From: Alphaproteobacteria bacterium
GTDB lineage: Bacteria > Pseudomonadota > Alphaproteobacteria > ATCC43930 > CGMCC-115725
NCBI GenBank assembly: GCA_030041335.1
Contig: JASHOB010000037.1
Span: 11,640-75,639, forward strand
DNA: 64,000 nt
Reading direction: 5' to 3'
The notes under the pieces were generated by a model that saw only the letters and a list, made by a program, of their open reading frames with translations, was not told the origin of the DNA and ran no database searches. The translations under genes and the position numbers were made by a program. Shown here one piece after another: positions 8,899-45,118 of this stretch; the first letter of the stretch is position 1, and each line of letters starts with the position of its first letter.

Positions 8899-8993
8899 GC
8901 ATCGACCTCTGACTGATTTCGTGGAGGGAACGAGCACCACTTCGTCGCTTTGAGCGTTAACAATAACTGAGAAAAGAGCTCATCCATTGCGAG

Positions 8994-10584: not shown

Positions 10585-12021
10585 TCAGAACAGATCGAAG
10601 TACTCGCGCTGCTCCCAATCGCTGATATCGAGCTGGAAGCGCGCGAGCTCCGCTCCCTTTATCTGGCGATAGCAATCGATGAACGCGGCGCCAAAACCGT
10701 CACGTAGCGCGTCGTCGCCGCGCAAGGCCGCTAGCGCCTCGCCGAGATCCTTTGGCAGCATCGGCGCCTGGGTCTCGTAAGGCGCATCGGCCGGCGGTGG
10801 CGGCAGCAGTTTCCGTTTGATGCCGTCGAGGCCGCACACGATTTGCGAGCCGAGATAGAGGTAGGGGTTGGCCGCCGGCTCGCCGGCGCGGTTCTCGATA
10901 TGAGTGAGCGGATCAGACGGCGCTCCGACCACGCGCAGCATCGTACCGCGGTTGTCTCTGCCCCAGATCGCGCGATCCGGCGCCAACGAATAGGGACGAT
11001 AGCGCTTGTAACCGTTGATCGTCGGCGTGCTGAATGCGGCCGCGGCGGCGGCATGATCGAGCAGCCCGGCAAGATAATGCTGCCCGAGCGGACTAAGCAG
11101 GTCGACCTCGCCGGCGAACGCGTTTCCGCCGTTCTTCCTGTCGCGGAGCGACTGGTGCAGATGCCATCCGCTCGACATCGCGTTGGGGAAACGCGGGCGG
11201 CACATGAAGCTGGCAAGATAGCCGTAGCGGCGGCAGATCTGCTTGGTCGCGTTGCGGAACAGAATCATATTGTCCGCGGGTGCCATTCCGATTGCGGCAG
11301 GGAAGGTGAGCTCGACTTGGCTCGGTCCGAACTCGACCTCGAGCGAGCGCAAGGGCAGATCGAGCGCCGCGAGATTGGTGCGCAGCAGTTCGAACACCGG
11401 ATCGAGCTGGTCGTAACGCAGCTCAGTCAGGTATTGATAGCCCTGCGTCAGTAGGGAAACCTTAGGCGGATTGCCGGGCTCACCCGGACGGCCCGTGTCG
11501 CTCGGCTGCAGACTCGGATCGTCAAGCTTGAAAATATGGAACTCGACTTCGAGGCCAGCGACGAAATCGTACCCGAGGTCGCCGAGCTGATCGACCAGCG
11601 CCCGATAAAGCTGGCGCGTCGCCAGGGGCATTGGCCGGCCGTCGGGAAAATAAAGGTCGCACAGCATCCACCCGCTATGCGGCGCCCACGGCAGCACGCG
11701 GAACGTCGTTGGATCGGGCACCATCACAAGGTCGGCGCCACCCTCCATTTCGCGCGCGCCGAAGCCGCCGCCCGCGCTGAACACCGGATAGACGGTACGG
11801 TGCGACGTGTCCTTCAATAGCAGCGTCGTCGAAAAGCTCCAGCCGTTCGCCATCGCGTCCGGCGCTTCTGCCGCGGTGATTGTCTTCCCGCGCAGTACGC
11901 CGTGCTGATCGGGCACCGACAGGCGAATCACGTCAATCTTGTCTGCGACGCGCTTTAGCACCTCGTCGGCGTGCCTCGCCTCGTCAGGCGAGCGAAGCTG
12001 ATGCTTCTCAACGAAGGTCAC
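10585..12021 (-). CDS. glutamine synthetase family protein (gamma-glutamyl-amine synthetase-like)
   Basis: 478 aa with the GS beta-grasp N-domain (IRLSVPDQHGVLRGK) and catalytic-domain motifs (EVEFGPSQVELT, SSGWHLHQSL, NRGTMLRV). The GTG start overlaps the upstream stop as GTGA. Confidence 0.85.
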   Translation of the reverse strand: MTFVEKHQLRSPDEARHADEVLKRVADKIDVIRLSVPDQHGVLRGKTITAAEAPDAMANGWSFSTTLLLKDTSHRTVYPVFSAGGGFGAREMEGGADLVMVPDPTTFRVLPWAPHSGWMLCDLYFPDGRPMPLATRQLYRALVDQLGDLGYDFVAGLEVEFHIFKLDDPSLQPSDTGRPGEPGNPPKVSLLTQGYQYLTELRYDQLDPVFELLRTNLAALDLPLRSLEVEFGPSQVELTFPAAIGMAPADNMILFRNATKQICRRYGYLASFMCRPRFPNAMSSGWHLHQSLRDRKNGGNAFAGEVDLLSPLGQHYLAGLLDHAAAAAAFSTPTINGYKRYRPYSLAPDRAIWGRDNRGTMLRVVGAPSDPLTHIENRAGEPAANPYLYLGSQIVCGLDGIKRKLLPPPPADAPYETQAPMLPKDLGEALAALRGDDALRDGFGAAFIDCYRQIKGAELARFQLDISDWEQREYFDLF

Positions 12022-13316
12022 GGCGTTTGCCAGGGGGCGGCACTGCGGCGCTTTAAATCAGCGTCCCGCCAGTAACTATCCCATTCGTTTGTGGGCGCGA
12101 CGCCGTCGATGGTGACCGGTAGCTCGTGATTGTCGGGCCGCGACAGGAGCGTTACTTCGCCTGCCTCCGCTTTGTCGATCGCGTCGAGCAGTACGCGGCG
12201 ATAGGCGGAGATCGCTTTATCGGTCTGACCAAGATGCTCGCGCGTGCGGTCGTGTATGCGACCCTGGCTCTCCACCGCCCAATTGTCGTGAACGTTAATG
12301 TCCATGCCCATGCCCGTGAAGGTCTGGATCTTCTGCTCGGCGGCACTGTATCCCCAATTATTGTGCCGGTTCACGCGCGGTTTGTAGTCGGGCAGCGCAT
12401 AGAGCTCGAGCCGCTGGCGCCGCATCTCTTGCTTGTTCACCGGATCGCGGAAACTAGTGAAGATCGCGTACCAATAGCAATTCTCGTCGTCGACCGGGAC
12501 GTGCCACTGCGTGATGGTCATGGTCTCACTGAGCGGGATCAGAACAGCATGCGGGAAGATCAGGTTGGTAACGCGGACATGCGTGTGCGCTTGGTCGAGC
12601 GGGCGCAGCGCAATCAGGCGCAGTCCATAGTCCGTGTTCTCCACGTCAATGCGCGGCCGCATGTGTTCGCGGAGCACACGGCTCATCGGCATGCTGCCGT
12701 CAATGGAGTTGGCGCGGAACTGTTTGCCGTAGGCGGTAGCCCCTTCTTCGTCCTCGAAAAAGCGATGCAGAAACGAAGCGTGCGCAGGGTCGATGCCGAC
12801 TTCAAGCGCCTGAAGCCAATTGCAATCGATGTGGCCCTTGAAGGCGAAACTGTATGCGTCGGGCGAGGCGAAACAGTCGAGCCGGGGGAGAGCGGGCGCC
12901 TCGCCCGCGCCAAGATAAGCCCAGATAATGCCATTCTTTTCGCGCACCGCATAAGAGGCTTGCCGTACCCTCTCGTGCAGACGGCTGCCATCGGGTTCTG
13001 CCGGCGTTTCACGGCACCGGCCTGCTGCGTCGAACAACCAGCCGTGAAAGGCGCACCGCAGGCCGCCGTCCTCTAGTCGCCCGAACGCAAGGTCAGCGCC
13101 ACGGTGGGGGCAGTCGCGGTCGAGCAGGCCCAATCGCCCTGCGTCGTCGCGAAATAGCACTAAGTCCTGGCCTAGGACGCGTATCGCGCGGAGTGGCCGC
13201 TCAGGCACCAACTCCTCGGACAGTGCGACTGGTTGCCAATAGTGACGCTGCAATGTCCCGCACGGCGTGCCGGGGCCGACCCGCACTACCCGCTCGTTCT
13301 GTTCATGACTCATCAT
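12018..13316 (-). CDS. Rieske [2Fe-2S] non-haem-iron oxygenase, alpha-subunit type
   Basis: Rieske motif CPHRGADL...CAFHGW. The later DPAHASFLH looks like a mononuclear-iron motif. 432 aa. No beta subunit or reductase is adjacent. Confidence 0.85.
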   Translation of the reverse strand: MMSHEQNERVVRVGPGTPCGTLQRHYWQPVALSEELVPERPLRAIRVLGQDLVLFRDDAGRLGLLDRDCPHRGADLAFGRLEDGGLRCAFHGWLFDAAGRCRETPAEPDGSRLHERVRQASYAVREKNGIIWAYLGAGEAPALPRLDCFASPDAYSFAFKGHIDCNWLQALEVGIDPAHASFLHRFFEDEEGATAYGKQFRANSIDGSMPMSRVLREHMRPRIDVENTDYGLRLIALRPLDQAHTHVRVTNLIFPHAVLIPLSETMTITQWHVPVDDENCYWYAIFTSFRDPVNKQEMRRQRLELYALPDYKPRVNRHNNWGYSAAEQKIQTFTGMGMDINVHDNWAVESQGRIHDRTREHLGQTDKAISAYRRVLLDAIDKAEAGEVTLLSRPDNHELPVTIDGVAPTNEWDSYWRDADLKRRSAAPWQTP

Positions 13317-14109
13317 AGCGACGGTCCTTTACCCAGGGAGCAATTGCGCGCTCCGATTAGTTATATTAGTCGAACAATTCACACGTCCTTCGAATTTCAT
13401 CAATCAATTAACAGCAACGCAACGGCGGTGCCGCCATGTACCGCGAACGCGATGGTCCTGCTACGGCGTTGGTGCAACACGATCATGGCGTCAGGAGATG
13501 GATGAGGGCGGCGATTCGCATGAACCAACCAAGCGCGGGGCCCCGTATGCTATAAGCATCGCGATGAATAGTCCCGAGGCGATGTCGCGAATACTTTTAG
13601 CCGATAGATACGCTCGAGAATGCGGCTCAGCGCCGGCCGGTACGCCCTAAGCCGCGGCGGCTGTTGAAGGTGCCAACAGAAAGCGGCAGTCGATGAAAAT
13701 GATCCCAGCTGCGATCACACCGGACAGGTAGAAACCGATACCTGTCATAATGCGTCTCATTCTCCGTCACACTGCTCGGACTTTGCGGATATGTCGTTTG
13801 AATACAATCCGGGCGTCCGTCGAGGGTAGCCGCCGACCCAATCTTTGGGAAGCGGCCAGCTTGTCGTGAACGGGTACCCGGCACTTTCCTTGCAAGCGGA
13901 CGCAACAGGCGATCAGAGGTAAAATCGTTGTTGCACAAAGCAGAAATGGCGCAACGCTCCACCTCATGTCTTTCGGAGTAGATTCCCCAGTTTATGAGCA
14001 CACGCCTAGCAGAAGGACGCCCTTCGGTCTCGCGTTGGTCGAGGTACTCGCGCAAGGCCGGATCAGCCTCTATATGGGACATCCTAATTGGCGCGCTTGG
14101 GGGAACCAT

Positions 14110-14362
14110 CATGGCTGACCAGCTACACACTATGACGATGGATCAGTTGCATTACCTTGCCATCGACCAGACCGGCCAGCTGTATTGGCACGGTGAACTT
14201 GTGCGAACGTCGATGGTACTCCCTACCTTCGTGAATGTGGCAATCATCATTGGCGCCCTTGCAGCCTTGATAAGTGCAGTAGTGGCAGCAATTGGCCTCT
14301 ACCGGGGAATAGTGAGGGAACGGCTGCGTGAGCGGGAGCTAGAGCAGCAAAAGCCTTCCTAG
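14110..14362 (+). CDS. hypothetical small membrane protein
   Basis: MADQLHTMTMDQLHYLAIDQTGQLYWHGELV... followed by one clear TM helix (LPTFVNVAIIIGALAALISAVVAAIGLY). GGGGGA lies just upstream of the ATG. Lower-GC segment. Confidence 0.35.
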
Positions 14363-14363
14363 C

Positions 14364-15012
14364 TCAAACCAGTCCCGTATTTCGTCGCCGCGATAAGCGG
14401 GCCGGCACAAGCTCGATGCGGCACCAAAGACAGCGCGAACGATGACCCGATCGATGAAATCGATGAAATTTCATTCCACGAATCTCAACACATCGGTCGA
14501 TACGGACGAGTTTGCTGCCGTGATCGAAATTAAACGACGCGTAGTTTGCGGTTCCCGTTACCGCCGGCGAGCATGGCCGCCGCCAACTTTTGCCTCGCTG
14601 CGATCCGTCTCGCCTTGATCGGGTCATAGTCGCGCAGCGGCGATGGTTCGCCATCTTGGGCGAGCCGATCCGAACACGGCGATACTTTTCTTGGGCGGCC
14701 CGGTCGCGGAATTGCGTATAGATCCGCTGATTGACCTTCCATACTCGCTTGTTGTGATTGGGTTGGTAATCTCGTTCCCGCCAACCTAATGCCACGAGCG
14801 GCGAAACCGCATCTTCTACTTCGCGAGATCGTCTTGCCCTCGAGGCCCTTTACCTTCGAGGTCAGATCGGAAGGGACGATCCGCGCCGTTCGATGGGCCA
14901 GCAGGTAACCGGCGACGGATGGCGTCAGGTCGATATCCTGGCCGGCGCCCAGCCGGGCACAGCACCGCACCGCCGGCGGCATCCAAAAATCGCGAACCAG
15001 GGTGTCGGCCAT
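14364..15012 (-). pseudogene. decayed ORF(s), unidentified (possible mobile-element or phage remnant)
   Basis: Two overlapping minus-strand ORFs in different frames (14530..15012 and 14364..14795). Protein-like stretches switch frame, e.g. ...KGLEGKTI / AREVEDAVSPLVALGWRERDYQPNHNKRVWKV... and ...DYDPIKARRIAARQKLAAAML. No intact family motif recognised. Confidence 0.3.
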
Positions 15013-15496
15013 AGCCGCGGTTTCGCGCCTACTTCGGTTTGAAGGCGGCGTCTAATAGCATGATGGAGTATCAACGCTACACGTCCGAAGATACCGGGCA
15101 GCTTGCCGACATCGGTGCGGAAGCCCATGCCTGGCGGACTATTGGTTTCGGTGTCGAGCAGATCCGTTCCAACGGGTGGCAGATGGCGCGGGCCACGGAC
15201 GAGACGCTCAATATGCGCCCTCCGGGAACGGTGACGAGGTATTCGATGAAGGCTCTCGTACTTGTCGACTTGGCGTCGACGCTCCCGATCCTTTAGCCAG
15301 CCGACGCGGTCGCATCAGGGTGACCGGGGAAGGCAGCAACAAACCGTCTTCGATCAGATTGCCCGGCTTACGCAGCCGCAAGGGCTGCACGCCGCCCATG
15401 ACGGCCGTTCCGGGCTTTCCAGGTGCTTCGCCGCAAGCGATCGCGCCGTGGGCTCCTGTCGGGGTTCCACGTGTGGGATAAGTACAGGGTCGGGCG

Positions 15497-17595: not shown

Positions 17596-18657
17596 TTGCC
17601 CGAGTCGCGCCGGTTGCCCACGGGTTCCGTCATTGGACGGCTGGTATTGATCGCCGCGGTCATCGCGTGCGCCGCCGCTGCCTTCGTTTATACGGGGGGA
17701 TGGTTCTCGCCCGAGCGCCTGACGCCGGACAAGCTCGTCGACGCGTTGACGCCACCCGGCGGCGCACCGCCACTCGGCCACCGGCGCAACCACGCCAAAG
17801 GCGTTTGCTTTACCGGCGTCTTTGAGGCGAATGGCGTGGGTTCCGAGCTGTCGCACGCGCAGGTCTTTGCGCGCGGCGAGTATCCGGCTCTCGGTCGTTT
17901 CAATCTCGCCACCACCAATCCGAATGTGCGAGACGGGACGGTCCGCGTGCGCGGTCTCGGGCTTATGATCAGCACCCCGGACGGGCAGGAGTGGCGCATG
18001 GCGATGATCGACGCACCGGTCTTCCCGGTGGCAACGCCGCAAGGGTTTTACCAACTGCTGCTCGCACAGGCGAGCAAGGACCCGAACGCGATGCCGACCT
18101 TCGCCAAAACCCATCCCGAGATCGCGAAGTTCAGCAACTGGGCTAAAAGCGCGCCCTGGACCGGGAGCTACGCCGAAGATCGGTTCAACAGCCTCAACAG
18201 CTTCATCTTCGTGGACGGTTCCGGCGCCGAGCACGCCGTGCGATGGTCGCTCCTCCCGGCGGCGCAGCCAGTCGTCGTCGCACCTGAGGAGCTTGCGAAG
18301 CGCCGCCCCGACTTCCTCGAACAGGAGATCACCGAGCGGGTTAGGGGCGGGCCAGCGCGCTGGACGATGCTGGTCACGGTGGCCAATCCGGGCGATACGA
18401 CCGCCGATCCCAGCCAGCCCTGGCCGCAAGACCGCCGCGCCGTCGAAGTTGGGACACTGGTCGTGCGTGAGATCGAGGCAGAGCGGAACGGACCGTGCCG
18501 CGATATAAATTTCGATCCGACCGTGCTTCCAAGCGGTATACGAACGTCGGATGACCCCTTCCCAGCCGCACGATCGTCGGCTTACGCGAAGTCCTATGAC
18601 CGACGCACGGCGGAAGCCGAGGACTATCCGCGAACCGCGCCGGGAGGGAGCCAATGA
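17596..18657 (+). CDS. catalase-related haem protein (small catalase-family peroxidase)
   Basis: TTG start after a GGAGGGGGA RBS. N-terminal TM/signal anchor. Catalase proximal motif HRRNHAKGVCFTGVFEANG. The 446-aa antisense ORF 17314..18654 is judged a shadow. Confidence 0.8.
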   Translation: MPESRRLPTGSVIGRLVLIAAVIACAAAAFVYTGGWFSPERLTPDKLVDALTPPGGAPPLGHRRNHAKGVCFTGVFEANGVGSELSHAQVFARGEYPALGRFNLATTNPNVRDGTVRVRGLGLMISTPDGQEWRMAMIDAPVFPVATPQGFYQLLLAQASKDPNAMPTFAKTHPEIAKFSNWAKSAPWTGSYAEDRFNSLNSFIFVDGSGAEHAVRWSLLPAAQPVVVAPEELAKRRPDFLEQEITERVRGGPARWTMLVTVANPGDTTADPSQPWPQDRRAVEVGTLVVREIEAERNGPCRDINFDPTVLPSGIRTSDDPFPAARSSAYAKSYDRRTAEAEDYPRTAPGGSQ

Positions 18658-19244
18658 CCCCCATCCGACGCTTCACTCCGCCCCAGCGCTTCCTGCATTG
18701 GCTCATGGCACTTTGCATACTTGCCATGCTGTTCATCGGCGTCGGCATGGTGTCGACAGTCGCGCCGAAATACCTGACGCTCGTCTCCATTCATAAGCCG
18801 CTCGGCACGCTGATCCTCATTCTTGCGCTGATCCGCCTCGCCGTACGCTTGCGGTACCGCGCTCCGCCGCTGCCGCCAGATTTGCCCGAACCGCTGAAGC
18901 TCGCGGCGCATCTCTCGCACTATGCCCTTTACGCACTCATGATCGTCATGCCGCTGATCGGCTGGGGGATGCTGTCGGCCGCCGCTTACCCGGTGGAGCT
19001 GTGGGACGGCGTCTATCTGCCTTCGATCCTGCCGCTAAGCGACAGACTGCACACGGTGCTGTGGAACGCTCATTACTATTTGGCGTTCCTGTTCTACGTG
19101 GTGATCCTGATGCACGTCGCCGCGGCGCTGTTCCATGCAATCATCCGCCGCGACGGCGTCTTCGAGGCGATGGGACCGGCGCTCACGCGCGACAAGGTCG
19201 GGCCCGCGGATCGACCGGTAGTGCCTTTGCAAAGATCGGGTTGA
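18654..19244 (+). CDS. cytochrome b561 family protein
   Basis: 196 aa, four TM helices with conserved His (RFLHWLMA..., SIHKPLG, LSHYALYALM, WNAHYYLAF). ATGA overlap with the catalase-related gene. Confidence 0.85.
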   Translation: MTPIRRFTPPQRFLHWLMALCILAMLFIGVGMVSTVAPKYLTLVSIHKPLGTLILILALIRLAVRLRYRAPPLPPDLPEPLKLAAHLSHYALYALMIVMPLIGWGMLSAAAYPVELWDGVYLPSILPLSDRLHTVLWNAHYYLAFLFYVVILMHVAAALFHAIIRRDGVFEAMGPALTRDKVGPADRPVVPLQRSG

Positions 19245-19635: not shown

Positions 19636-20979
19636 CTATTCCAAGGCTGCCGGTTGCGCGACTTGGGAGGTAGCGGGCGCATGGCCCGCTGTTTCGGTGT
19701 CGCGTACGGCTGGGAAGGTGTAGCGCCCGAGTGATGCCATAAGTATGACGGAAATGGCCATGCCGATCTGGCAAATGGTGAGAATCGGCGTGTATGAGTG
19801 ATTGGCATCATAGCTGGCACCAAACACGAAGGGTCCGACACCGGCGCCGATGACAAAGATGCCGTAGGTATAGGAATAGATTTCCGCGAGCGCCCGCAAA
19901 CCGAAATAGCGCGAGATGAAATAGGAAACGATTTCGCCCTCGGCGCCAAGACCGATGCCCAGGACGATGCCGCCAAGAATGATGACGGGCGGAGTACTGC
20001 CATATTGCAGGAGCAATGTCGCGATCAGCGGTGCCAGGAAGAAGATGAGCGACACACGCGGCGAATCGATGCGGTCCAGAAAATAGCCGGAAACGATCCG
20101 GCCGACGATCGACGTGAGGCCCGCCGCGGACAGCACGGCGATGCCGATTTGTGGCGTGAAGCCACGCACGGTCAACAAATTGACCGAATGAGCCAGGACG
20201 CCGAGCAACGTGATCGCGCCGATGAATTGGGCGATGGTAAGAAGCCAAAAGTTGCGCGTCTTGCGTGCCTCGGCCGCCGTCATACCCATTGCATCTGTCG
20301 GTAGCGCCGCTTTTTCCCGGCTGCGCCAGCCCTCCGGCTCGTAGAGCAAGAAATAGGCGACGGGGAGTGAGATGACGATAATCGCGCCGGACAGGGTCCA
20401 GTAGGCGGCACGCCACCCGTGCGCAAAAATGATCGGACCGATAACGAGCGGCATCAGTGCGCCGCCGATACCGCCCCCAACCCCAAGGCTAATGCCAAGG
20501 GCCAGGCCGCGATGGCGAAAAAACCATGCCGAAATCAGCTTCGAATAAGCGACCGGCCCAACGAACGCTGCCGACAGGCCGATAAAGAACCAGAAAATGT
20601 AAAGTTCGGTCAGTGATCCGTTGAGAAGCGACAAAAGGAAATTGACGATACCAAACGCCAGAATTCCCGGCAGCATGATAGCACGCGCGCCCCAACGGTC
20701 TGTCAAATAGCCGAGAAACGGCGAAGTGACCGCAACCGTAATGGACGAGATACCTTGAACGATGGAAAAGTCGGCGAGCCCCCAGTGGAACTCCGTGGTG
20801 ATTGGCCGCATCAACAACGGCAGGGTGTAAAAGATAACGGGGCCGGCGCCCAGAGCACTGCCGGTGAGGCCGGCAATCACCACACCGGTGGATTTGCCCG
20901 TCCATTCCGCCGTCAATTTTTCCTCCCCGGTCCGATCGCGACCGGCTCCATGAAACGCGACCACGCGGTAAAGGGACAA
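19636..20979 (-). CDS. MFS transporter
   Basis: 12-TM pattern. The start is uncertain because the ORF begins at a TTG and has no early ATG. It lies 51 bp downstream of the DHDPS-like gene on the same strand. Confidence 0.8.
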   Translation of the reverse strand: MSLYRVVAFHGAGRDRTGEEKLTAEWTGKSTGVVIAGLTGSALGAGPVIFYTLPLLMRPITTEFHWGLADFSIVQGISSITVAVTSPFLGYLTDRWGARAIMLPGILAFGIVNFLLSLLNGSLTELYIFWFFIGLSAAFVGPVAYSKLISAWFFRHRGLALGISLGVGGGIGGALMPLVIGPIIFAHGWRAAYWTLSGAIIVISLPVAYFLLYEPEGWRSREKAALPTDAMGMTAAEARKTRNFWLLTIAQFIGAITLLGVLAHSVNLLTVRGFTPQIGIAVLSAAGLTSIVGRIVSGYFLDRIDSPRVSLIFFLAPLIATLLLQYGSTPPVIILGGIVLGIGLGAEGEIVSYFISRYFGLRALAEIYSYTYGIFVIGAGVGPFVFGASYDANHSYTPILTICQIGMAISVILMASLGRYTFPAVRDTETAGHAPATSQVAQPAALE

Positions 20980-21030
20980 TCGTATCTTCGGATCGGAGGT
21001 ATCAGCCGGGGCGATAGACGCTGAACCCGC

Positions 21031-22050
21031 TTAGGCGGGGTTTCGCCCAACGAAGAAGTCCCGGTTAGGCTCATTTGCGGGAAGAATTTTGGAGGCTGCC
21101 AAGCCAGCTCGCAACACATTCATCTGGGCATCATGAATGCGCATTGTTGGCTGTCGTAACGGTCCGCCATTGTAGCCCTGTAGCCAAGCTTCGAATTTCC
21201 ATTGCATGCGGTTGATAAAAAAACCGCCGCCAAGAGTTTGTTGGACGGCGCCTTTGGCGCGGCGGGCCGCTTGGAGCTGCCAATAGAGCTGCGTCGCCTC
21301 GTCATGGGCACCTTCCTCAAGGAGTCGATAGATCCGCGGCATCATCGGCCCATAATATTCGTGGTCGCTGGTGGCCGAGACTCGAATGGGAATGAGTTGT
21401 GCCAGCGGAATGAAATCCGCCTCGATTGGGCAGGAAATCACAACTTCTTTGCCAAAATGCCGGTAGCACTCGACCACCCCCATGATTCCCGGAAAGCCGC
21501 CCTCCGCCTTGATTGCAACCACGTTCGGACAATCCTTAATGAGCCGGCGGATAAGCGAAACCGGGATGTCCGATGCATGGATCCGGGGCGAAAAGCCCCA
21601 GAGCATCATCGGAAACAATATGATGCCAAGCGAGGTAGCGTCGCAGATCGCACGCGTGTAGTCGTAAATGTCCTGTTCGCTTTCGGGGTAGAAGTTGGGC
21701 GGATAGGACAGCAAGACCAGGTCGGCGCCGCTCCTCTCGGCGATCTTAAGCGCCTCGAGATTGTCCTCGAGTGTGCTCCAACTTCCATGATGCACAAGGA
21801 TTTGGCGGTTCCCTGCCTCATCGCGTGCGATCTCGAAAAACCGCCGATATTCGTCGACAGTAATGGCAACCTCGGACACCAAGAGCGTGCCCGCAAAGCC
21901 GAGTTCGATGTTCCTGCGGACATCGTGGCGGATGGCCCTTTCGTTGATGTCCCTGAGATTGGCGGTGAAAGAGGGGATGATCACATCCACCACCCCTCGC
22001 AGGTTTGCCTTCGCCCAGTCCCGCGCCTCGCCGTTGCCGTAGGTTGGCAT
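21031..22050 (-). CDS. dihydrodipicolinate synthase/N-acetylneuraminate lyase family protein (class I aldolase-like)
   Basis: I chose the start MPTYGNGEARDW because an AAAGGAGACGG RBS lies about 8 nt upstream. Schiff-base Lys context VVAIKAEGG. The long N-terminal extension in the ORF track is Arg-rich shadow. Confidence 0.8.
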   Translation of the reverse strand: MPTYGNGEARDWAKANLRGVVDVIIPSFTANLRDINERAIRHDVRRNIELGFAGTLLVSEVAITVDEYRRFFEIARDEAGNRQILVHHGSWSTLEDNLEALKIAERSGADLVLLSYPPNFYPESEQDIYDYTRAICDATSLGIILFPMMLWGFSPRIHASDIPVSLIRRLIKDCPNVVAIKAEGGFPGIMGVVECYRHFGKEVVISCPIEADFIPLAQLIPIRVSATSDHEYYGPMMPRIYRLLEEGAHDEATQLYWQLQAARRAKGAVQQTLGGGFFINRMQWKFEAWLQGYNGGPLRQPTMRIHDAQMNVLRAGLAASKILPANEPNRDFFVGRNPA

Positions 22051-22067
22051 TAGCCGTCTCCTTTCGC

Positions 22068-23045
22068 TCATGCCTTGACCGAGAACTCGACCGGCAACGC
22101 CGTCGCTGATCCGGCCTCGAGCGCCTTCTTCAGCAGGTGCTCGGCCACGACGATGTCCTGGAGTCCACTGCCTACCGATTTGAAGAGCGGCAGTTTCGCG
22201 TCGGCCAAATTTTGCGCTGCCTCGCCGCACAGTACCGAGTGCAGCGCCACGGTCTTTCCCGCAACCGGGATTCCAGCTCGCGCTGCTTCGATCATGTCCC
22301 CGGTCTGATGCAGGACTTCGTCGACGACATCGCATACGATCAAGTCAGACTTTGCCACAACAGAGACGTCGATCTCGCGCTGCTCGGGAACTGTTGAGCC
22401 GATCGATACGACGACGGTACCGGGTGAAAGCCAATCGCCGTAGACGATCGGCCGTTCGCCCCGAGAGCGCGCGGCGGCGAGGACGACCGTCGCGCCGCTT
22501 ACCGCGGCCTCCGCCGCATCGACGACGGCAACGGGGATGCCTAACTCTTTCTCGATGCTTGCGGCGAATGCTTTGCGCCGCGCCGCCGTCGGGCTGAACA
22601 CGCTGATGGCCTCAATCGGGCGCACCGTCGCGAACGCTCGGACATGCGTTCCAGCTTCAAGACCGCTACCCAAGACGCCTAGGCGCATCGGTGCCTCGCG
22701 TGCGAGCTCGTTAAGTGCGACCGCGGACGTCGCCGCGGTGCGAAATGCCGTTACCAATTCGCCATCGACAAAGGCAGCGATGCGGCTGGTAAGATGGTCG
22801 AACAGGACGATGACATACTGGACGCCGGGCCGCGATGCGCGGCCAAACGAGCCGCCCATCAGCTTGGCGCCGAAATAACGGCCTCCGGCAGGGATCGCAG
22901 GCAGCGTCCGCAGCCAGCTTCCGCCGAAACGGGCGACAGTGCGCGCCGGGGTTGCCGCCTCGGCTTGTTGTTCACGATACGCCTTCGCGAGGCAGTCAAT
23001 GACCTCATCCCATCGGAGGAGTTCTCGGGCAGCGTCCGAGGACAC
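22068..23045 (-). CDS. ornithine cyclodeaminase/mu-crystallin family protein
   Basis: Rossmann motif LGVLGSGLEAGTHV plus C-terminal SVGSGLQD. There is no in-frame ATG near the N-terminus, so I propose GTG at 23045 (VSSDAARELLRWDEV...). Start uncertain. Confidence 0.8.
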   Translation of the reverse strand: MSSDAARELLRWDEVIDCLAKAYREQQAEAATPARTVARFGGSWLRTLPAIPAGGRYFGAKLMGGSFGRASRPGVQYVIVLFDHLTSRIAAFVDGELVTAFRTAATSAVALNELAREAPMRLGVLGSGLEAGTHVRAFATVRPIEAISVFSPTAARRKAFAASIEKELGIPVAVVDAAEAAVSGATVVLAAARSRGERPIVYGDWLSPGTVVVSIGSTVPEQREIDVSVVAKSDLIVCDVVDEVLHQTGDMIEAARAGIPVAGKTVALHSVLCGEAAQNLADAKLPLFKSVGSGLQDIVVAEHLLKKALEAGSATALPVEFSVKA

Positions 23046-23095
23046 GAAATAGACGTGGCCAGCAGCGGTTATCAGACCGCTTTCGGGCAGAGTGC

Positions 23096-24010
23096 CTAGA
23101 CCGGCGGGGTCTGCCACAGCGCGGGGTCCGGCGTCGGCTTTGCCATTCCCTGTGGGCCGTCGGACAGGACGGAAGTGCCCCACTGGTCAGTTATCTCGAA
23201 GCTCGGCGGATATACAGTAGGCTTCCAGGTGGCATCGTCGACGCGGTCCACCTCGGCCGTGTATTCGAGACTGTTGCCGACTGGATCAAGGAAATACGAG
23301 AACGTGTTGTTGCCGGCGGTGTGACGCCCCGGCCCCCACTTCAACGTCACCTTGGCCTTCAGCAGCCGTCCCGCGCCGCGCATCATCTCGTCGACGTCGC
23401 GCATTTCGTAGGCGACATGGTTGAGGCAGGCGGGGCCTGGGATGAAAGCGATGCTATGGTGAACCTCGTTGCACCGTAGGAAGGACATGAAGTCACCGAG
23501 CCAGTCGCTTACCTTGAAGCCGAGCTGCTCTTCGTAGAAGTTGACTGACTTTTTGATATCGGGGGTGTGCAGGACGACGTGCGACAGCACGGCCGGGATG
23601 CTTTCGCCACGTTTCAATTCGCGCGGCGCGACCGTTGCGACATCGCTCGATATCTCTAATGTGTGTCCGTGAGGATCGAAGCAGCGAAAACCGTAGCCGC
23701 CGCCAGGACTATCCAATCGCTTCGGGTCTGAGATGAGCTTGACGCCACCTCGAGCGAACCGTTGGGCGAGGGCGTCGACGGTTCCGCGGTTGTCCACCGC
23801 GAAACCGATGACATCGAGGCTCCGCTTTGCTGCGCCGCGCCAACGCGTGATGAACGGTTCGGTAGAGCCGGGGGCGCGGAAATAGGCGAGCTCGCCGTCG
23901 GTTACAACTTCCTCTAAGCCCCAAGGGTCCTGGAGGAAATCTCGCTCGGTGGCGTAGTTCGGTCCGGCCAGGCCGACATACCGGAGCTTGGTGACGCGCG
24001 GATCGCTCAT
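23096..24010 (-). CDS. type I extradiol ring-cleavage dioxygenase (VOC superfamily, two-domain)
   Basis: 304 aa. Candidate 2-His-1-Glu triad contexts LSHVVLH, LNHVAYEM and SLEYTAE. Duplicated glyoxalase-fold modules. Confidence 0.85.
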   Translation of the reverse strand: MSDPRVTKLRYVGLAGPNYATERDFLQDPWGLEEVVTDGELAYFRAPGSTEPFITRWRGAAKRSLDVIGFAVDNRGTVDALAQRFARGGVKLISDPKRLDSPGGGYGFRCFDPHGHTLEISSDVATVAPRELKRGESIPAVLSHVVLHTPDIKKSVNFYEEQLGFKVSDWLGDFMSFLRCNEVHHSIAFIPGPACLNHVAYEMRDVDEMMRGAGRLLKAKVTLKWGPGRHTAGNNTFSYFLDPVGNSLEYTAEVDRVDDATWKPTVYPPSFEITDQWGTSVLSDGPQGMAKPTPDPALWQTPPV

Positions 24011-24082
24011 GCCTTTCCTCTCGCTGCTGTGCCGAGACTAGCGGGCACCGCCCGCCGCGGAAAATTTGATGTCACAATACCA

Positions 24083-24103
24083 CCCATCACCCGGATGGAT
24101 GGG
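24083..24103. promoter_or_regulatory. candidate LysR/NodD-type operator CCCATC-N9-GATGGG (contains ATC-N9-GAT)
   Basis: Perfect 6-bp inverted repeat, read directly. It lies in the 159-bp divergent region, about 73 bp upstream of the dioxygenase ATG and about 67 bp upstream of the LysR GTG. Confidence 0.5.
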
Positions 24104-24169
24104 CCATTTTCAAGCCGTGTTTATGGTAATCTGACGAGAAAAATTGCCAAGCAATGATGGGAGGACATC

Positions 24170-25072
24170 GTGAACCTGGTGCAGTTCGATCTCAATCTGC
24201 TGGTAGCGCTACACGCATTGCTGCGCGAACGCAACGTCACCCGCGCCGGCCAACGGATCGGCCTTAGCCAGCCGGCGATGAGCGGTACGCTAGCGCGGCT
24301 ACGCGAGCTTTTCCATGACGAACTGCTGGTGCGGGTCGGCCGCAATCTCGAGCTGACGCCACTGGCACAGGAACTGTGCGAGCCGCTACGCCAATGTATC
24401 GAGCGGATCGAGGACATGATGGATCAGCGTCGCCCGTTCACGCCGGCACGGGAAAATCGCAGCTTCACCGTCGCCGCCTCGGACTATGCCGCCTTCATGC
24501 TGTTGCCGTCGCTGCTCGACCGGCTGAGCCGCGAGGCGCCGGGCGTCACCGTGAAGTTCACCCAACTTGATGCGCGCTCGCCGGAGCTGCTTGCGAACGA
24601 TCGGGTCGATTTTGTCGTCATGCCATCGGAGATCCAGACCAACAATCCGGGAGAACTGCTGTTCATTGATCACTGGGTATGTGTCGCCTGGTCGAAGCAT
24701 CCCGAACTCGCCGATCAGCTGACCCCGGACAAATTCTGCGCTCTGCCGCATATCGGCTACGAATTGCCGGAGCATGACGGACACTCGGTCGCCGACCTGC
24801 ATCTTTCGCATTTGCAGATACGCCGTCGTGTCGCCGCCACCACCGAAAGCTTCCTGATGGCGCCATTTCTGCTGCGCGGTACGCAGTTGATCACAGTCAC
24901 CCACCATCGCCTCGCCGAACGCGTCAAGGATGCGGCGGACATTCGCATTTTTGATCCGCCTTATCCGATGCCCGACATCCACGAGAGCATCTATTGGAAC
25001 CCGCGTCACGCCAGCACGCCGTCGCATCGCTGGCTGCGCTCGATCTTTGTCGAGGTCGCGCGGCAACTGTGA
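24170..25072 (+). CDS. LysR family transcriptional regulator (NodD-like)
   Basis: N-terminal wHTH FDLNLLVALHALLRERNVTRAGQRIGLSQPAMSGTLARLRE, 300 aa. Divergent from the dioxygenase operon. Confidence 0.9.
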   Translation: MNLVQFDLNLLVALHALLRERNVTRAGQRIGLSQPAMSGTLARLRELFHDELLVRVGRNLELTPLAQELCEPLRQCIERIEDMMDQRRPFTPARENRSFTVAASDYAAFMLLPSLLDRLSREAPGVTVKFTQLDARSPELLANDRVDFVVMPSEIQTNNPGELLFIDHWVCVAWSKHPELADQLTPDKFCALPHIGYELPEHDGHSVADLHLSHLQIRRRVAATTESFLMAPFLLRGTQLITVTHHRLAERVKDAADIRIFDPPYPMPDIHESIYWNPRHASTPSHRWLRSIFVEVARQL

Positions 25073-25187
25073 CCGAATGCTGTGTGACCAAGGCGGTGCT
25101 AACCATCGGCTTCGCCGATAGCTTACATCGCAATATCCCATTGGTCGCCGCCGCGTCCCTGGTTATCGTGTGCCCAGAGAGGTACAG

Positions 25188-26237
25188 ATGACCGACGCGA
25201 CGTCGTTGCCGGACGGTGTTCACTTCGTCGGCAGTATCGCGCTCGACAGCGTCCCCGAGGTGTTCCGCGTCTGCGGCACCACGCTAGGACGGCGCCTCAA
25301 ACGCATGCCCGACGGTGAGCCCGGTGGTCGCCGGCTATGGCTTAGCTGGCAATATCCGCTGCTGCGTGCCAGCCCCTATCTCGAGGTCAACCCGGCGCAG
25401 CCTTCGGTCGCGACCGGCTTCTCCCTGTTGCGCCTCGCCGACGGCGTGAAGCCGGAAGAAGTAGGCTTCGGCGAGTTGGGCTACGCACGGGAGGCACGGG
25501 CCTCCTACCAGGATTTTTTGAGAGCACGCGATAACGGCGAGATCGCCACCGCCACGAGACTTCAGGTTGCTCTGCCCACCAAGCTGGCCGTAATCGGCGC
25601 ATTTTGTCCGGGGCCCGATATGCCGGCGATTGAGCAAGCCTACGAGCGGGCGATGGTCCGTGAGGTTGCTGCTATCGCCGAGCGTATTCCGCACCACGAT
25701 CTCTGCATTCAGTGGGATGTGTGTATCGAGATGGTGATGTATGACGGGCAATTGACGAGGTTCACGCCACCGGGCTGGCATGATGTTGGCGCCGAGATCG
25801 CGGCGCGCATGAAGCGGCTCGGCGAGGCGCTAGCGGCCGATGTCGAACGCGGCGTTCATCTCTGTTACGGCGATTGGGAGGCGCGTCATTTTGTTGAGCC
25901 GAAGGACATGAGAAAGATGGTGGAGCTCGCCAATCTGATCGCCGGCGCGATTTCCCGTCCAATCGCTTATATCCACATGCCGGTACCGATCGAGCGCAGC
26001 GACGACGCCTTCTTCGCGCCGCTGCGTGAGTTAAAGCTCGGACCAAAGACCGAACTGATCCTTAGCCTGGTCCATAATGATGGCGTCGACGCCACCAAGA
26101 CGCGGATTGCCGCGGCGCAAAAATTCATGCCGACGTTTGGCGTTGCCACCGAATGCGGCATTGCGCGCCAACGTCGCCCGGAGCTGGTAAAATCGCTGAT
26201 CCAGATTCACGCCCAAGTCTCGAGGATGCCGACATGA
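25188..26237 (+). CDS. MetE C-terminal-domain-like (cobalamin-independent methionine synthase-like) putative Zn protein, function unknown
   Basis: Start MTDATSLPDG follows AGAGAGG. VHLCYGDW, PIERSDD and ATECGIARQ line up by eye with the E. coli MetE Zn-site contexts HTHMCY, IETSRSD and NPDCGLKTR (from memory). Confidence 0.5.
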   Translation: MTDATSLPDGVHFVGSIALDSVPEVFRVCGTTLGRRLKRMPDGEPGGRRLWLSWQYPLLRASPYLEVNPAQPSVATGFSLLRLADGVKPEEVGFGELGYAREARASYQDFLRARDNGEIATATRLQVALPTKLAVIGAFCPGPDMPAIEQAYERAMVREVAAIAERIPHHDLCIQWDVCIEMVMYDGQLTRFTPPGWHDVGAEIAARMKRLGEALAADVERGVHLCYGDWEARHFVEPKDMRKMVELANLIAGAISRPIAYIHMPVPIERSDDAFFAPLRELKLGPKTELILSLVHNDGVDATKTRIAAAQKFMPTFGVATECGIARQRRPELVKSLIQIHAQVSRMPT

Positions 26238-27229
26238 CCGCGAAGCCGGACCTCACCGACTTTGCACTCGGCACGTTTTCCGTTGCCGGCGCGACGCCGT
26301 TCGCCGGGCTGGTAATTGATGGCCGCGTGATTGCCGGCGGAACCGAATCGGTGCTTCAACTTTTGCAGCGTTGGCATGAGGCTTTTCCGGCGCTGCGACG
26401 GCTTGCGGACGATTTTCGTGCCGGTTCACGTTCGGCAGAACTGCGGGAGCGCTCGGCGCCGGTCGAAAGCTTGCGTATGCATCCGCCCGTGTATCTTCCT
26501 CGCAACGTCTATTGCGCTGGGATGAATTACCGCAAGCACGTCATCGATCTGATCATGTCGCAATCCGGGGTCGCGGATCGGCCTGGCCTAAGCGAATCCG
26601 AACGCCGTGCCGAGGCGGAGAAGACCATGGATGTGCGAGCGTCGAGCGGGGAGCCGTTCGTCTTCATAAAGGCGGCATCCTCCGTCGTCGGGGCGCGGGA
26701 TCCGGTTCCGCTACCCGAGGGGGTGACTCGGCCCGATTGGGAATTGGAGCTCGGAGTGGTGATGGGGCGCCCTGCGCGGCATGTGAAGCGTGATGAAGCG
26801 CTGAAATATGTCGCCGGCTATGCGATCGTGAATGACATCACGGCACGCGATCGCATCAACCACAAGGAAATGCGCTTCGATTGGCTCAAGGGAAAATCGC
26901 AGCCGGGATTCCTACCGTTCGGCCCCTATCTGGTGCCCGCGGCGTTTGTCCCCGATCCGCAAGGGTTGCGCCTGACGCTAAAACTCAACGGTCAGGTCAT
27001 GCAGAACGAGTCGAGCGCCGACATGATCTACGGCGTTGCGCGGCTGATCGAGTATCTCTCGGAGCACGTTCAGCTCTTGCCCGGCGATCTGATCTGCACC
27101 GGGTCGCCCGCGGGCAACGGCGCCCATTATAACCGTTTCCTTCGCCCCGGCGACGTGATGGAAACGGAAATCGACGGCCTCGGGACGCAACGCAACATGT
27201 GTAGCGTCGAAGGCAGGCGGGAAGGCTGA
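26234..27229 (+). CDS. fumarylacetoacetate hydrolase (FAH) family protein
   Basis: Start MTAKPDLTDF overlaps the upstream stop as ATGA. FAH motifs GMNYRKHV, ELELGVVMG, NDITARD, KGKS, GSPAG. Confidence 0.85.
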   Translation: MTAKPDLTDFALGTFSVAGATPFAGLVIDGRVIAGGTESVLQLLQRWHEAFPALRRLADDFRAGSRSAELRERSAPVESLRMHPPVYLPRNVYCAGMNYRKHVIDLIMSQSGVADRPGLSESERRAEAEKTMDVRASSGEPFVFIKAASSVVGARDPVPLPEGVTRPDWELELGVVMGRPARHVKRDEALKYVAGYAIVNDITARDRINHKEMRFDWLKGKSQPGFLPFGPYLVPAAFVPDPQGLRLTLKLNGQVMQNESSADMIYGVARLIEYLSEHVQLLPGDLICTGSPAGNGAHYNRFLRPGDVMETEIDGLGTQRNMCSVEGRREG

Positions 27230-27230
27230 C

Positions 27231-28415
27231 ATGGCAAGATTCTCCTATACGCGCGACGCCCTGATCGAACGTGCGAGGACGCTGGCACCATTGCTAAGCC
27301 AGCGCGCGGCCGAGACCGAAAGGTTACGGCGTCTCCCGGAGCAGACGCTCGCGGATTTTCGGCGGGCCGGGCTGATGGGGTTGCTCAAGCCGCAAAGATT
27401 CGGCGGCCCCGAAGTGCGCATCGACACGGCCATGGAGGTGACGGCCGAGTTGGCACGCGGCGACGGCTCGGCGGCCTGGGTCTGGGTTATTCTCGCCTGC
27501 CATGACACGCTCGCCGCGTTTTTTTCGGAGGCGGCCCAAGAGGAGTTCTGGGTCGAGCCGGACGCGCTGATGGCTTCCAGCTTTGCACCATCAGGCAAGG
27601 CGGAGGGCGCAGAAGGCGGCTATCGTTTATCCGGCAAGTGGTCCTACTGCAGTGGCGTCGATTGCGCGCAATGGCTCATGCTCGGCGCGATCGCTGGTAT
27701 GCGCAGCGTCGATCCGCCGCTACCGGAACTGATTTACACGCTGGTCCCGCGTCAGGACGTGACGGTAATCGACGATTGGTACGTCATGGGTTTGCGCGGC
27801 ACCGGCAGCAAAAGCGTCGTCGCCAGCGACATTTTCGTACCCGCGTACCGCACGTTTTCCTGGACCGCCGCGGGCGACGGCACTACGCCAGGGACGAAAG
27901 TACACCCAAGTCCGCTCTATCGTGCGCCGATGATGGCATTCTTTCCCTTCTTCATCTCCTCGCCGGGGGCAGGCATCGCCCGCGGCGGCCTCGATGCATT
28001 CGTCTCCGAAATGAAGGAACGTCGGCTGCAAGACGGCTCTCCGATGGGCCGGGTGCCAGGCGTACAGATGCGTGTCGCCGAAGCTTCGGCCCTGATCGAT
28101 GCCGCCGATCTGCTCTATAAGCGCTCGCTACGTGAGACGATGGACAAGATTTTTGCCGGCGAGAGGCTCGATCTCGAGCATCGCGCCCGTAGCCGCCGCG
28201 ATCAAACCTATTCGCTGGTGCTCGCGAAACGTGCGGTGGAGTTATTGTTCTCAGCCGAGGGCGCGCGAGGCCTTTATGACGACCATCCGGTGCAACGTGC
28301 CGCCCGTGATCTGCACGCGGTGTCGTCGCATTTGGTCGCGACCTGGGACGCCCCGGCAGCGGCCTACGGCGCCGTCAGGCTGGGTTTTGCTCCGGCGCCG
28401 AATTTTCCCTTGTGA
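27231..28415 (+). CDS. acyl-CoA-dehydrogenase-fold flavin-dependent monooxygenase, oxygenase component (HsaA/C2-HpaH/DszC-like)
   Basis: 394 aa. N-terminus ...AAETERLRRLPEQTLADFRRAGLMGLLKPQRFGG, then YRLSGKWSYCSG and GLRGTGS. This is the pattern of ACAD-type two-component monooxygenases. Confidence 0.8.
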   Translation: MARFSYTRDALIERARTLAPLLSQRAAETERLRRLPEQTLADFRRAGLMGLLKPQRFGGPEVRIDTAMEVTAELARGDGSAAWVWVILACHDTLAAFFSEAAQEEFWVEPDALMASSFAPSGKAEGAEGGYRLSGKWSYCSGVDCAQWLMLGAIAGMRSVDPPLPELIYTLVPRQDVTVIDDWYVMGLRGTGSKSVVASDIFVPAYRTFSWTAAGDGTTPGTKVHPSPLYRAPMMAFFPFFISSPGAGIARGGLDAFVSEMKERRLQDGSPMGRVPGVQMRVAEASALIDAADLLYKRSLRETMDKIFAGERLDLEHRARSRRDQTYSLVLAKRAVELLFSAEGARGLYDDHPVQRAARDLHAVSSHLVATWDAPAAAYGAVRLGFAPAPNFPL

Positions 28416-28425
28416 CAACGCCACG

Positions 28426-28452
28426 GCGATCGCCAAGCGCGGTCGCTTTTTT
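28426..28452 (+). terminator. Rho-independent terminator
   Basis: GCGATCGC-caagc-GCGGTCGC (8-bp stem with one G.U pair) followed by TTTTTT, 10 nt after the stop at 28415. Confidence 0.65.
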
Positions 28453-28983
28453 GCCGAAACCGAACCCGGAGCGGCCGGTGTCTTTCTCCAGGCGGGTCGG
28501 TGGCACTGGGAAAGTTGACGAACAGAGCCGGCGCGAGTGTTCTGACTGAAATTGAGCGACGTGAGGACGGACAGGCAAGCGATAGCCCGCAGATTTCCGG
28601 AGTCCTTCTGCACACGCAATCGGCGTTCGTGGTCGCAAGATCGCTCCCCCTCTGCTTCCGCCACCTCGATGCGCGGTCATGCCACCCGTTTTGCGATGGT
28701 GGGGCGGCGAGCCGGAGTTGTGGCACGGATCAACCAGCTTTCGGATACGAAGACTGCGATGAGTTCCGCGTTCTTGACACCGATGTCCGCACGGGTCGCC
28801 CGGCGATGTGGCTGGGAGCGAAAAATTATTGCATTTTGGTGAATGGGGACATGCCCAACATAAAACCCCTGGAACGGATCCGACATCTGAGAGAGAATCC
28901 AATGTTGTCTCGGCTATTCTCGTGGTGAACGGGCGAGTTGTCAGTTAGCCGCGGTGGCGAAAGCGCCTGGGGCGAAGCTCTGA

Positions 28984-44816: not shown

Positions 44817-44835
44817 AACCATCAGGGAGGAGCAT

Positions 44836-45117: not shown

Positions 45118-45118
45118 G

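Follow-up and report, generated by a model that had tools for sequence, protein, structure and literature searches.

The naphthalene upper pathway runs through NahC, NahD, NahE and NahF, of which NahE is a hydratase-aldolase of the DHDPS/NAL family. The hpa/hpc (homoprotocatechuate) pathway comprises an HpaBC or C1-C2 hydroxylase, HpaD, HpaE, HpaF, HpaG, HpaH, HpaI and GabD; succinate semialdehyde is a product of HpaI, and the open form of the DapA product, 6-amino-2,4-dihydroxyhept-2-ene-1,7-dioate, is the 6-amino analogue of the HpaI substrate. Hydroxyproline catabolism combines a Pyr4H2C deaminase of the DHDPS family, an alpha-ketoglutarate semialdehyde (alpha-KGSA) dehydrogenase and a delta1-pyrroline-2-carboxylate (Pyr2C) reductase of the OCD family (PMC4113996), and the ring-cleavage dioxygenase of mimosine degradation, PydA, is a Pfam02900 protein of the LigB family (PMC7356986). 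Here we describe an eight-gene locus in a 64,000-nucleotide stretch of alphaproteobacterial DNA (contig JASHOB010000037.1, hereafter the window) which shares parts with the hpa/hpc, nah upper, HsaABCD, Lhp hydroxyproline, pyd and kpi systems but fails the defining features of each. With moderate confidence, we read it as a LysR-controlled locus by which an uncultured soil alphaproteobacterium catabolizes a phenolic and probably carboxylated aromatic compound. In this reading it is built from two independently travelling units: a six-gene core, and an OCD-DHDPS cassette that would serve as the lower module.

The eight genes lie in a divergent layout around the LysR gene, at or very near the positions (19636 to 28452 of the window) where a preliminary description had counted seven; the family assignments made there are borne out, and so is the divergent architecture. 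The leftward operon on the minus strand opens with a two-domain VOC type I extradiol dioxygenase (23096 to 24010, two PF00903 stretches), followed by the two cassette genes, encoding an OCD/mu-crystallin-family NAD(P)-dependent enzyme (22068 to 23117; PF02423, E 3e-42, 145 bits against a cutoff of 24) and a DHDPS-family class I (Schiff-base) lyase (21031 to 22050; PF00701, E 5e-14, 52 bits against 22), and ends with an MFS transporter (19636 to 20979; PF07690, E 2e-35). All four are tightly packed, and the GTG start of the OCD gene at 23117, which is the start called on near-identical contigs, gives a 22-nt overlap with the dioxygenase stop. On the plus strand, the rightward unit consists of the LysR-family regulator (24170 to 25072, PF00126 and PF03466), a 349-amino-acid protein with a predicted MetE-like TIM-barrel fold and no Pfam model (25188 to 26237), a 331-amino-acid FAH-superfamily enzyme (26234 to 27229; PF01557, E 2e-65, 221 bits) and the oxygenase component of an HsaA/C2-HpaH-type flavin-dependent phenol hydroxylase (27231 to 28415, PF08028/PF02771). 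The FAH start overlaps the MetE-like stop (ATGA).

Homologues number in the hundreds to thousands for every gene (E-values as low as 1e-200), which shows that all eight are genuine genes rather than chance open reading frames (ORFs). The longest ORFs of the DHDPS, OCD, FAH and MetE-like genes extend too far at their 5′ ends; homologue lengths and the gene calls on contigs 99.9 to 100% identical set the proteins at 339, 349, 331 and 349 amino acids, respectively. For the transporter, the likely start is a TTG at 20916, giving 426 amino acids, the length of its homologues in L001, L002 and L180. All eight proteins scored below every NCBIfam equivalog cutoff and can thus be named only to the level of the superfamily. 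Seven other public contigs, which align at 98.8 to 99.97% DNA identity, have the same arrangement, and an eighth contig carries an identical dioxygenase. Among named relatives, uncultured Alphaproteobacteria and 'Stellaceae' metagenome-assembled genomes (MAGs) come closest, and a megablast of the whole interval against a plasmid database returned no match. A search of the literature yielded no paper on this gene combination and no described pathway or characterized equivalent, in line with the preliminary description, which had not been able to map the cluster to a pathway.

The composite architecture became evident when the eight window proteins were compared by tblastn with 80 species-representative loci anchored on the MetE-like gene (labeled L001 onward). 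The core, in the order MFS transporter and dioxygenase leftward, then LysR, MetE-like, FAH and HsaA-like genes rightward, was present at 74-92% identity in L001/L003, L002 and L004 to L007, and never with intact OCD or DHDPS genes. Five of these (L002, L004, L005, L006 and L007, 74-86% amino acid identity) contain the core without the cassette, with the reservation that no transporter was found in L007 and that the L004 contig ends after the MetE-like gene. In all five, DNA homology to the window stops at 21003-21017 and resumes at 23096-23098 (blastn), from which it follows that the missing piece is exactly the OCD and DHDPS genes, with the cassette as a unit spanning 21017 to 23095 on the minus strand. 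The dioxygenase stop abuts the transporter gene in the cassette-less loci, other than L007 where that gene is absent. Two further loci carry partial deletions: L001 lacks 21448-23088 and retains the 3′ 417 nt of the DHDPS gene, and L188, whose dioxygenase is 95% identical, lacks 21637-22174. The cassette was present in the window, in the contigs of 98.8-99.97% identity, in L087/L088, which have no transporter, and in L097. The core loci without the cassette, together with the deletions in L001 and L188, indicate that it is a separable unit found in one sub-clade and eroded at least twice independently. In the preliminary description the genes had been treated as one set to be conserved together, which does not agree with the five core-only loci and the two partial deletions. 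The cassette-less loci may reflect either a gain of the cassette elsewhere or a clean loss. Codon composition was considered as a sign of foreign origin, but the difference in GC content at third codon positions (0.68-0.71 in the cassette, 0.71-0.76 in the flanks) is too small to use.

In order to see where the cassette occurs in other bacteria, we surveyed 80 metagenome loci anchored on the DHDPS-like protein, 56 of which had at least 1.1 kb of upstream sequence and 38 at least 7 kb of flank. In 51 of these 56, the gene immediately preceding the DHDPS-like gene was the OCD gene, and in about 25 loci an aldehyde dehydrogenase gene lay between or after the pair. Ring-cleavage or hydroxylation genes were present in 24 of the 38 long loci (extradiol dioxygenase in 14, FAH in 11 and ring hydroxylase in 17). 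A Pfam scan of 133 proteins flanking the cassette agrees with this ring-cleavage context, the counts being SDR 12, LysR 9, Aldedh 7, Glyoxalase, cupin and GntR/FCD 5 each, FAH and FAD_binding_3 4 each, and Rieske alpha/beta and Amidohydro_2 3 each. Two dioxygenase subfamilies partner the cassette, 43-46% and 26-28% identical to the window protein, and both keep the metal triad and the catalytic His and Tyr. Transporters of the core and cassette loci are of acid type (MFS, TctC and TRAP).

Several cultured bacteria carry the pair. In Bradyrhizobium japonicum USDA 135, it is part of an island on pUSD135-3 between insertion sequence (IS) copies, where a LysR gene lies beside a run of VOC, small Rieske, FCD, OCD, DHDPS, succinate semialdehyde dehydrogenase (SSADH), FAD monooxygenase and MFS genes. 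Streptomyces sp. Ag109_O5-1 has a Rieske dioxygenase set next to a run of extradiol dioxygenase, OCD, SSADH, DHDPS, FAH, cyclase, Amidohydro_2, extradiol dioxygenase and FAH genes; a 58-amino-acid ORF between its DHDPS and FAH genes was considered as a 4-oxalocrotonate tautomerase and rejected, as it had no Pfam match. In Corynebacterium occultum (pCOCCU), acetoacetate-CoA ligase, cupin, FAH, VOC, MhpA-like and Aldedh genes adjoin the OCD-DHDPS pair. Roseomonas mucosa and Variovorax boronicumulans are further carriers; the Variovorax cassette stretch has no dioxygenase, and the pair there is near FAH enzymes and/or ring hydroxylases. A Xanthobacteraceae MAG combines OCD, DHDPS and fumarylacetoacetase genes with a divergent MetE-like gene, an FAD monooxygenase and a dioxygenase. 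The Streptomyces cassette dehydrogenase passes the SSADH model TIGR01780 (702.7 bits, cutoff 646), and Corynebacterium carries a second SSADH type.

Since the pair recurs near extradiol dioxygenases, FAH enzymes and ring hydroxylases across phyla, its juxtaposition with the core does not appear accidental. Independent distribution of the two halves of the cluster had been named in advance as a sign of accident; the distribution is indeed independent, but it separates the core from the OCD-DHDPS cassette and not the halves proposed at that time, and the accident does not follow. The premise that OCD and DHDPS enzymes belong outside aromatic clusters is wrong for this subfamily. Judged from gene neighborhoods, the cassette probably marks an undescribed branch of aromatic catabolism. 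What is new is a linked imine-chemistry enzyme and divergent DHDPS-family lyase beside extradiol dioxygenases, from Streptomyces to Bradyrhizobium, whose function is undescribed, and the existence of the five cultured carriers named above makes it directly testable.

One of the described systems closest to the locus is the hpa/hpc pathway, with which it shares a phenol hydroxylase of the C2/HsaA fold, a type I extradiol dioxygenase, an HpaG/HpcE-like FAH enzyme and an acid-type transporter, as well as a pyruvate lyase and, in other cassette carriers, SSADH. The dioxygenase aligns over its full length to its closest structure, 3b59 (E 3e-95), followed by BphC and homoprotocatechuate dioxygenases. 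H144, H198, E249, H184-H185, H230 within GPGRH230, and Y239 are invariant among eight sequences from both cassette-adjacent subfamilies, and we take these residues to match the BphC metal triad and catalytic His and Tyr. By structure match and residues it is a bona fide catechol-type type I extradiol enzyme, and it scores 62 bits against the HsaC cutoff of 450. The hydroxylase matches structures 2rfq (4e-65) and 2jbr (2.5e-49) and scores 306 bits with NF045629 (HsaA, cutoff 450) and 214 with NF045920 (C2-type p-hydroxyphenylacetate 3-hydroxylase, cutoff 650). Its H91 and S116 fall at the conserved positions of His120 and Ser146 of C2, and a Met occupies the position of Arg263, presumably the residue of C2 that binds the substrate carboxylate. 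No reductase gene for a two-component hydroxylase is located within the cluster. The FAH enzyme may be either an HpcE/HpaG-like decarboxylase/isomerase or a 2,4-diketo-acid C-C hydrolase: its best structures are HpcE (1gtt, 1e-49) and 8gsr (2e-47), and its best NCBIfam models are diketo-deoxyrhamnonate hydrolase (181 bits) and HpaG-C (TIGR02303, 158.8 bits against a cutoff of 276), both below cutoff. The transporter is closest to lactate and oxalate/formate-type acid carriers, with every NCBIfam match below cutoff. Unlike the hpa/hpc pathway, the locus has no HpaE, HpaF or HpaH, its lyase is of the DHDPS family and not a class II HpaI, OCD-family and MetE-fold proteins are present, and all equivalog scores fall well short of the cutoffs.

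Relatives of the core and its dioxygenase (L002 at 13240-15494, L189 and L191) are often accompanied by a fumarylacetoacetase, a metallo-beta-lactamase-fold protein and an Amidohydro_2 protein, and in one case by a VanA-like O-demethylase. The fumarylacetoacetase passes TIGR01266 (433 bits, cutoff 375). These associated genes are suggestive of intermediates of diketo-acid type and of substrates that are methoxylated or carboxylated.

The cassette recalls other systems. In Streptomyces, the order Rieske dioxygenase/SDR, extradiol dioxygenase, OCD-family enzyme, aldehyde dehydrogenase and DHDPS-family lyase mirrors NahA/B, NahC, NahD, NahF and NahE, with the difference that the NahD isomerase is replaced by an OCD-family enzyme and that the dehydrogenase is of SSADH type and not a salicylaldehyde dehydrogenase. 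A NahE-type identity of the DHDPS-like protein was rejected, as the solved NahE-type hydratase-aldolases known to us are absent from its 57 PDB sequence matches. This protein belongs to a highly conserved subfamily (65-70% identity between the window alphaproteobacterium and Streptomyces) in which the Schiff-base Lys181 (Lys161 in DapA) is invariant among 23 sequences. Compared with E. coli reference sequences, the position of DapA/NanA Tyr133 is a Trp (Trp151), the GTTGE motif is altered, and an invariant Arg occurs at or next to the position of DapA Arg138. It scores 26 bits with the DapA model TIGR00674 (cutoff 206) and 40.3 with its best NCBIfam model, TIGR02313 ('HpaI-NOT-DapA', cutoff 396.7). 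A Schiff-base DHDPS-family enzyme paired with an NAD(P)-dependent cyclic-imine enzyme is what DapA and DapB would be if run in reverse; unlike that pair, the reductase is of the OCD family and not DapB, the DapA score is low, Tyr133 and the Thr44 motif are not conserved, and the context is catabolic.

The cassette carriers bring together the same three superfamilies as hydroxyproline catabolism, and among solved structures the delta1-pyrroline-2-carboxylate reductase 6t3e (E 8e-35) is the nearest to the OCD-like protein. Unlike that pathway, the dehydrogenase scores as SSADH and not as KGSADH, and the neighbors include ring-cleavage genes. The OCD-like protein is below the equivalog cutoffs for ornithine cyclodeaminase and Pyr2C/Pip2C reductase (PRK06141, 152 bits against 322; PRK07589, 79 against 350). 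The hydroxyproline pathway was rejected for the window cluster, in which no proline-racemase-family or D-amino-acid oxidase gene was found, these being also not enriched among cassette neighbors. Steroid degradation by HsaA-HsaB-HsaC-HsaD resembles the locus in that HsaA is the best family of the hydroxylase and an extradiol dioxygenase is adjacent, but was rejected since the HsaA score is below cutoff and the HsaB reductase, the HsaD alpha/beta hydrolase and steroid genes are all missing. The mimosine/3-hydroxy-4-pyridone pyd locus was also excluded, as PydA is LigB-type and the window dioxygenase is VOC-type.

The preliminary description had proposed the meta-cleavage logic of hydroxylase, extradiol dioxygenase and FAH-family hydrolase, which holds, and the locus reads best as a novel variant of a meta-cleavage pathway with two uncharacterized enzyme families attached. 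From these families we infer the chemical steps, and with them the identity of the substrate and whether it contains nitrogen. The MFS acid carrier would import the substrate, the HsaA/C2-type oxygenase would hydroxylate the phenol in the ortho position using reduced flavin from an unlinked reductase, and the type I extradiol dioxygenase would open the resulting catechol. The FAH-family enzyme may then decarboxylate and isomerize, or hydrolyze, the diketo-acid ring-fission product, with the MetE-fold protein possibly catalyzing an additional step. The cassette, presumably co-transcribed with the dioxygenase and transporter, would work as the lower-pathway module, in which the OCD-family enzyme may carry out NAD(P)-dependent imine/amine redox chemistry on a nitrogen-bearing (or imine-forming) ring-fission intermediate and the DHDPS-family lyase may release pyruvate from the resulting 4-hydroxy-2-oxo acid, leaving a C4 semialdehyde (that of succinate or aspartate), which an adjacent SSADH-type dehydrogenase would oxidize in most other cassette carriers. 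As ketimine/amine chemistry is the only chemistry known for OCD-superfamily enzymes (PMC4113996), a nitrogen-bearing substrate or intermediate is plausible and favored, and the N-containing substrate with a cyclic imine intermediate suggested in the preliminary description is compatible with that chemistry.

A more specific version of this scheme, in which the cassette is DapA and DapB in reverse, acting on ring-fission products whose alpha-amino acid side chain is retained, and the MetE-fold family is a new, abundant zinc enzyme of aerobic aromatic catabolism, is tentative and in our opinion rather unlikely to be correct in full. An aryl-glycine-type acid, for example 4-hydroxyphenylglycine, would pass through a homoprotocatechuate-like sequence in which the side-chain C-alpha becomes C6 of the C7 diacid. 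The product would be 6-amino-2,4-dihydroxyhept-2-ene-1,7-dioate, which is 4-hydroxy-tetrahydrodipicolinate in its open form; the OCD-like enzyme would deal with the cyclic imine forms of this compound and the DHDPS-like enzyme would yield pyruvate and aspartate semialdehyde. With an alanine side chain, as in DOPA or tyrosine, the products would be pyruvate and glutamate semialdehyde. This amino-arylacetate scheme fits every family of the locus. If it is true that the cassette handles amino-substituted ring-fission products, it would give soil bacteria a new way of drawing carbon as well as nitrogen from compounds that resemble aromatic amino acids.

Several observations weigh against a composite meta-cleavage pathway with the cassette as its lower module, and some of these favor other explanations. 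The DHDPS-like protein has not kept the catalytic Tyr or the Thr motif seen in canonical DHDPS/NAL enzymes, making its lyase chemistry an extrapolation, the pathway assigns no clear role to the MetE-fold protein, and no deaminase or aminotransferase is enriched among the 133 cassette neighbors. The main rival, and a serious one, is a nitrogen-free meta pathway of homoprotocatechuate type in an unusual enzyme set, which we regard as possible but less likely. A 4-hydroxyarylacetate-like acid would be hydroxylated by the C2-HpaH-like enzyme, cleaved by an HpaD-like dioxygenase and decarboxylated and isomerized by an HpaG-like FAH enzyme, after which the DHDPS-like protein would act as an HpaI analogue to give pyruvate and succinate semialdehyde, and the OCD-like and MetE-fold proteins would stand in for the dehydrogenase, isomerase or hydratase steps that are absent. 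The resemblance of the hydroxylase to C2 (2jbr, NF045920), that of the FAH enzyme to HpcE and HpaG-C, the HpaI-like best model of the DHDPS-like protein, the membership of the cassette-linked dehydrogenase in a bona fide SSADH subfamily and the acid-type transporters all argue for it. However, these supporting matches are far below curated cutoffs (TIGR02313 40 bits against 397), the cluster has no homologue of HpaE, HpaF or HpaH, and the Bradyrhizobium island has no FAH enzyme at all. It also leaves the OCD enzyme unexplained, since no member of that superfamily is known to act on a nitrogen-free substrate (PMC4113996).

The core persists in the five related loci without the cassette, which has been partly deleted in L001 and L188, so that it is either dispensable for the role of the core there or supplied from elsewhere. 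In 14 of the 38 long loci no recognizable ring-cleavage gene is nearby, and the closest DHDPS homologue outside the clade (82%) has no OCD gene and adjoins an Asp/Glu-racemase-family gene and an M20 peptidase gene. All of this would also be expected if the pair were a self-contained imino or hydroxy-amino acid module of hydroxyproline or pipecolate type, placed in the operon by chance and outside the aromatic pathway, as would the presence of the superfamily trio of hydroxyproline catabolism (OCD, DHDPS and aldehyde dehydrogenase; PMC4113996). We consider such a passenger distinctly unlikely, because the cassette is inserted precisely at the junction of two genes in a single operon, where its OCD start overlaps the stop of the dioxygenase, and because it adjoins two extradiol dioxygenase subfamilies in five or more lineages that are phylogenetically far apart. 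Besides the cassette, the enzymes of the compact IS-flanked island are limited to a dioxygenase, a monooxygenase and a small Rieske protein, and the proline-racemase family is not among the 25 most frequent neighbor Pfam families, with DAO matches in 3 of 133. Highly improbable, in our view, is catabolism of an N-heterocycle itself, of hydroxypyridine or pyridone type such as 3,4-dihydroxypyridine, with the FAH enzyme hydrolyzing an acylpyruvate such as 3-formylpyruvate. For 4-hydroxypyridine in Arthrobacter, the proposed logic consists of a flavin hydroxylase, extradiol cleavage and an FAH-family hydrolase (PMC7356986), and the FAH enzyme here resembles 2,4-diketo-acid hydrolases, but the known ring openers are of other families (amidohydrolase for KpiC, LigB-type for PydA), the window dioxygenase groups with catechol-type enzymes and keeps their catalytic residues, and the cluster has no deformylase or amidase.

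The MetE-like protein had been described as a MetE-C-like zinc protein. Support for this comes from its predicted fold and from invariant HxC and EC motifs, whereas no Pfam, NCBIfam or PDB sequence match was found, even when a 28-sequence profile was searched against the PDB, which returned noise only; hhalign gave a probability of 9.9% between it and a canonical core-MetE-like protein. An AF2 model (pLDDT 87.8) had the MetE structures 3bq5, 3rpd, 1ypx and 3pph as its top Foldseek matches (TM 0.54-0.63, 9-14% identity, E about 1e-5 to 1e-6), followed by UROD, and the predicted fold is thus a MetE-type (beta/alpha)8 barrel. Invariant residues in the family include H224-x-C226, E322-C323, H263, D177/C179/E181 and many Arg, of which H224-x-C226 and E322-C323 resemble the His-x-Cys...Glu...Cys site of MetE and may form a zinc site.

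This family has 3994 relatives, with several copies per genome. At least three MetE-fold paralogues (L003, L060 and L066) occur in one MAG (MFD04463.bin.2.82), consistent with a family that has diversified for different substrates. Across 73 loci the neighbors of MetE-like genes are variable and come mostly from aromatic-catabolism families, including Amidohydro_2 decarboxylases in 15 loci and HsaA-like oxygenases in 11, along with LysR, TctC, extradiol dioxygenases, FAH, FAD monooxygenases, cyclases, UbiD and LigB. The window protein therefore stands for thousands of unannotated soil proteins in aromatic clusters, and one characterized member would annotate the family. In L180 the MetE-like gene is split by a single 1-nt deletion (window position 25613). 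Other contigs of the same population agree with the window and do not have this indel, so the split is probably an assembly error and not gene decay.

The divergent control region (24011 to 24169) lies between the dioxygenase and LysR genes. When orthologous intergenic regions were aligned, an inverted repeat, CCATC-N5-GATGG, was conserved at about 24081-24095 within a conserved ATACCA..CCAT..GGATGGATGGG block, and is a candidate LysR binding site; LysR itself is kept at 77-92% in all core loci. A single sigma-70-like match on the minus strand (24150-24123) was not above chance, and promoter and terminator scans across the region were overall not above shuffled expectation. The one convincing element from these scans, an intrinsic terminator on the plus strand at 28425 to 28453, closes the rightward unit 10 nt past the HsaA-like stop, with a 9-bp stem (6 G-C pairs), a 5-nt loop and TTTTTT, as the preliminary description had noted. 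In L006 the LysR/dioxygenase intergenic region contains an extra insert of about 160 nt (about 8800-8960) made of long palindromic segments, which looks like a REP/MITE-type element.

Other genes of the window were also identified. Just past the terminator, a 142-amino-acid ORF (28500-28928) has no Pfam match and is called as a gene on the near-identical L180. On the other side of the locus, a catalase-related gene and a cytochrome b561 (Ni_hydr_CYTB) gene overlap stop to start (17596-19244), and the pair is kept beside the locus on related contigs. A second small cluster of aromatic type, at 44271-49285, encodes a MarR regulator, a 276-amino-acid protein with no Pfam match, a cupin that weakly matches 3-hydroxyanthranilate dioxygenase, another HsaA-like oxygenase of acyl-CoA-dehydrogenase fold and an MFS transporter; the next gene resembles a TetR-family regulator. 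More aromatic-catabolism content is found at 38390-41004, where a Lyase_1/ADSL_C protein, possibly of carboxymuconate-cycloisomerase type, accompanies an Amidohydro_2 decarboxylase-like gene. At 10585-13316, a LigXa-like Rieske oxygenase gene is directly upstream of a glutamine-synthetase-like gene, a pairing that we take to recall gamma-glutamylation-dependent arylamine oxidation systems.

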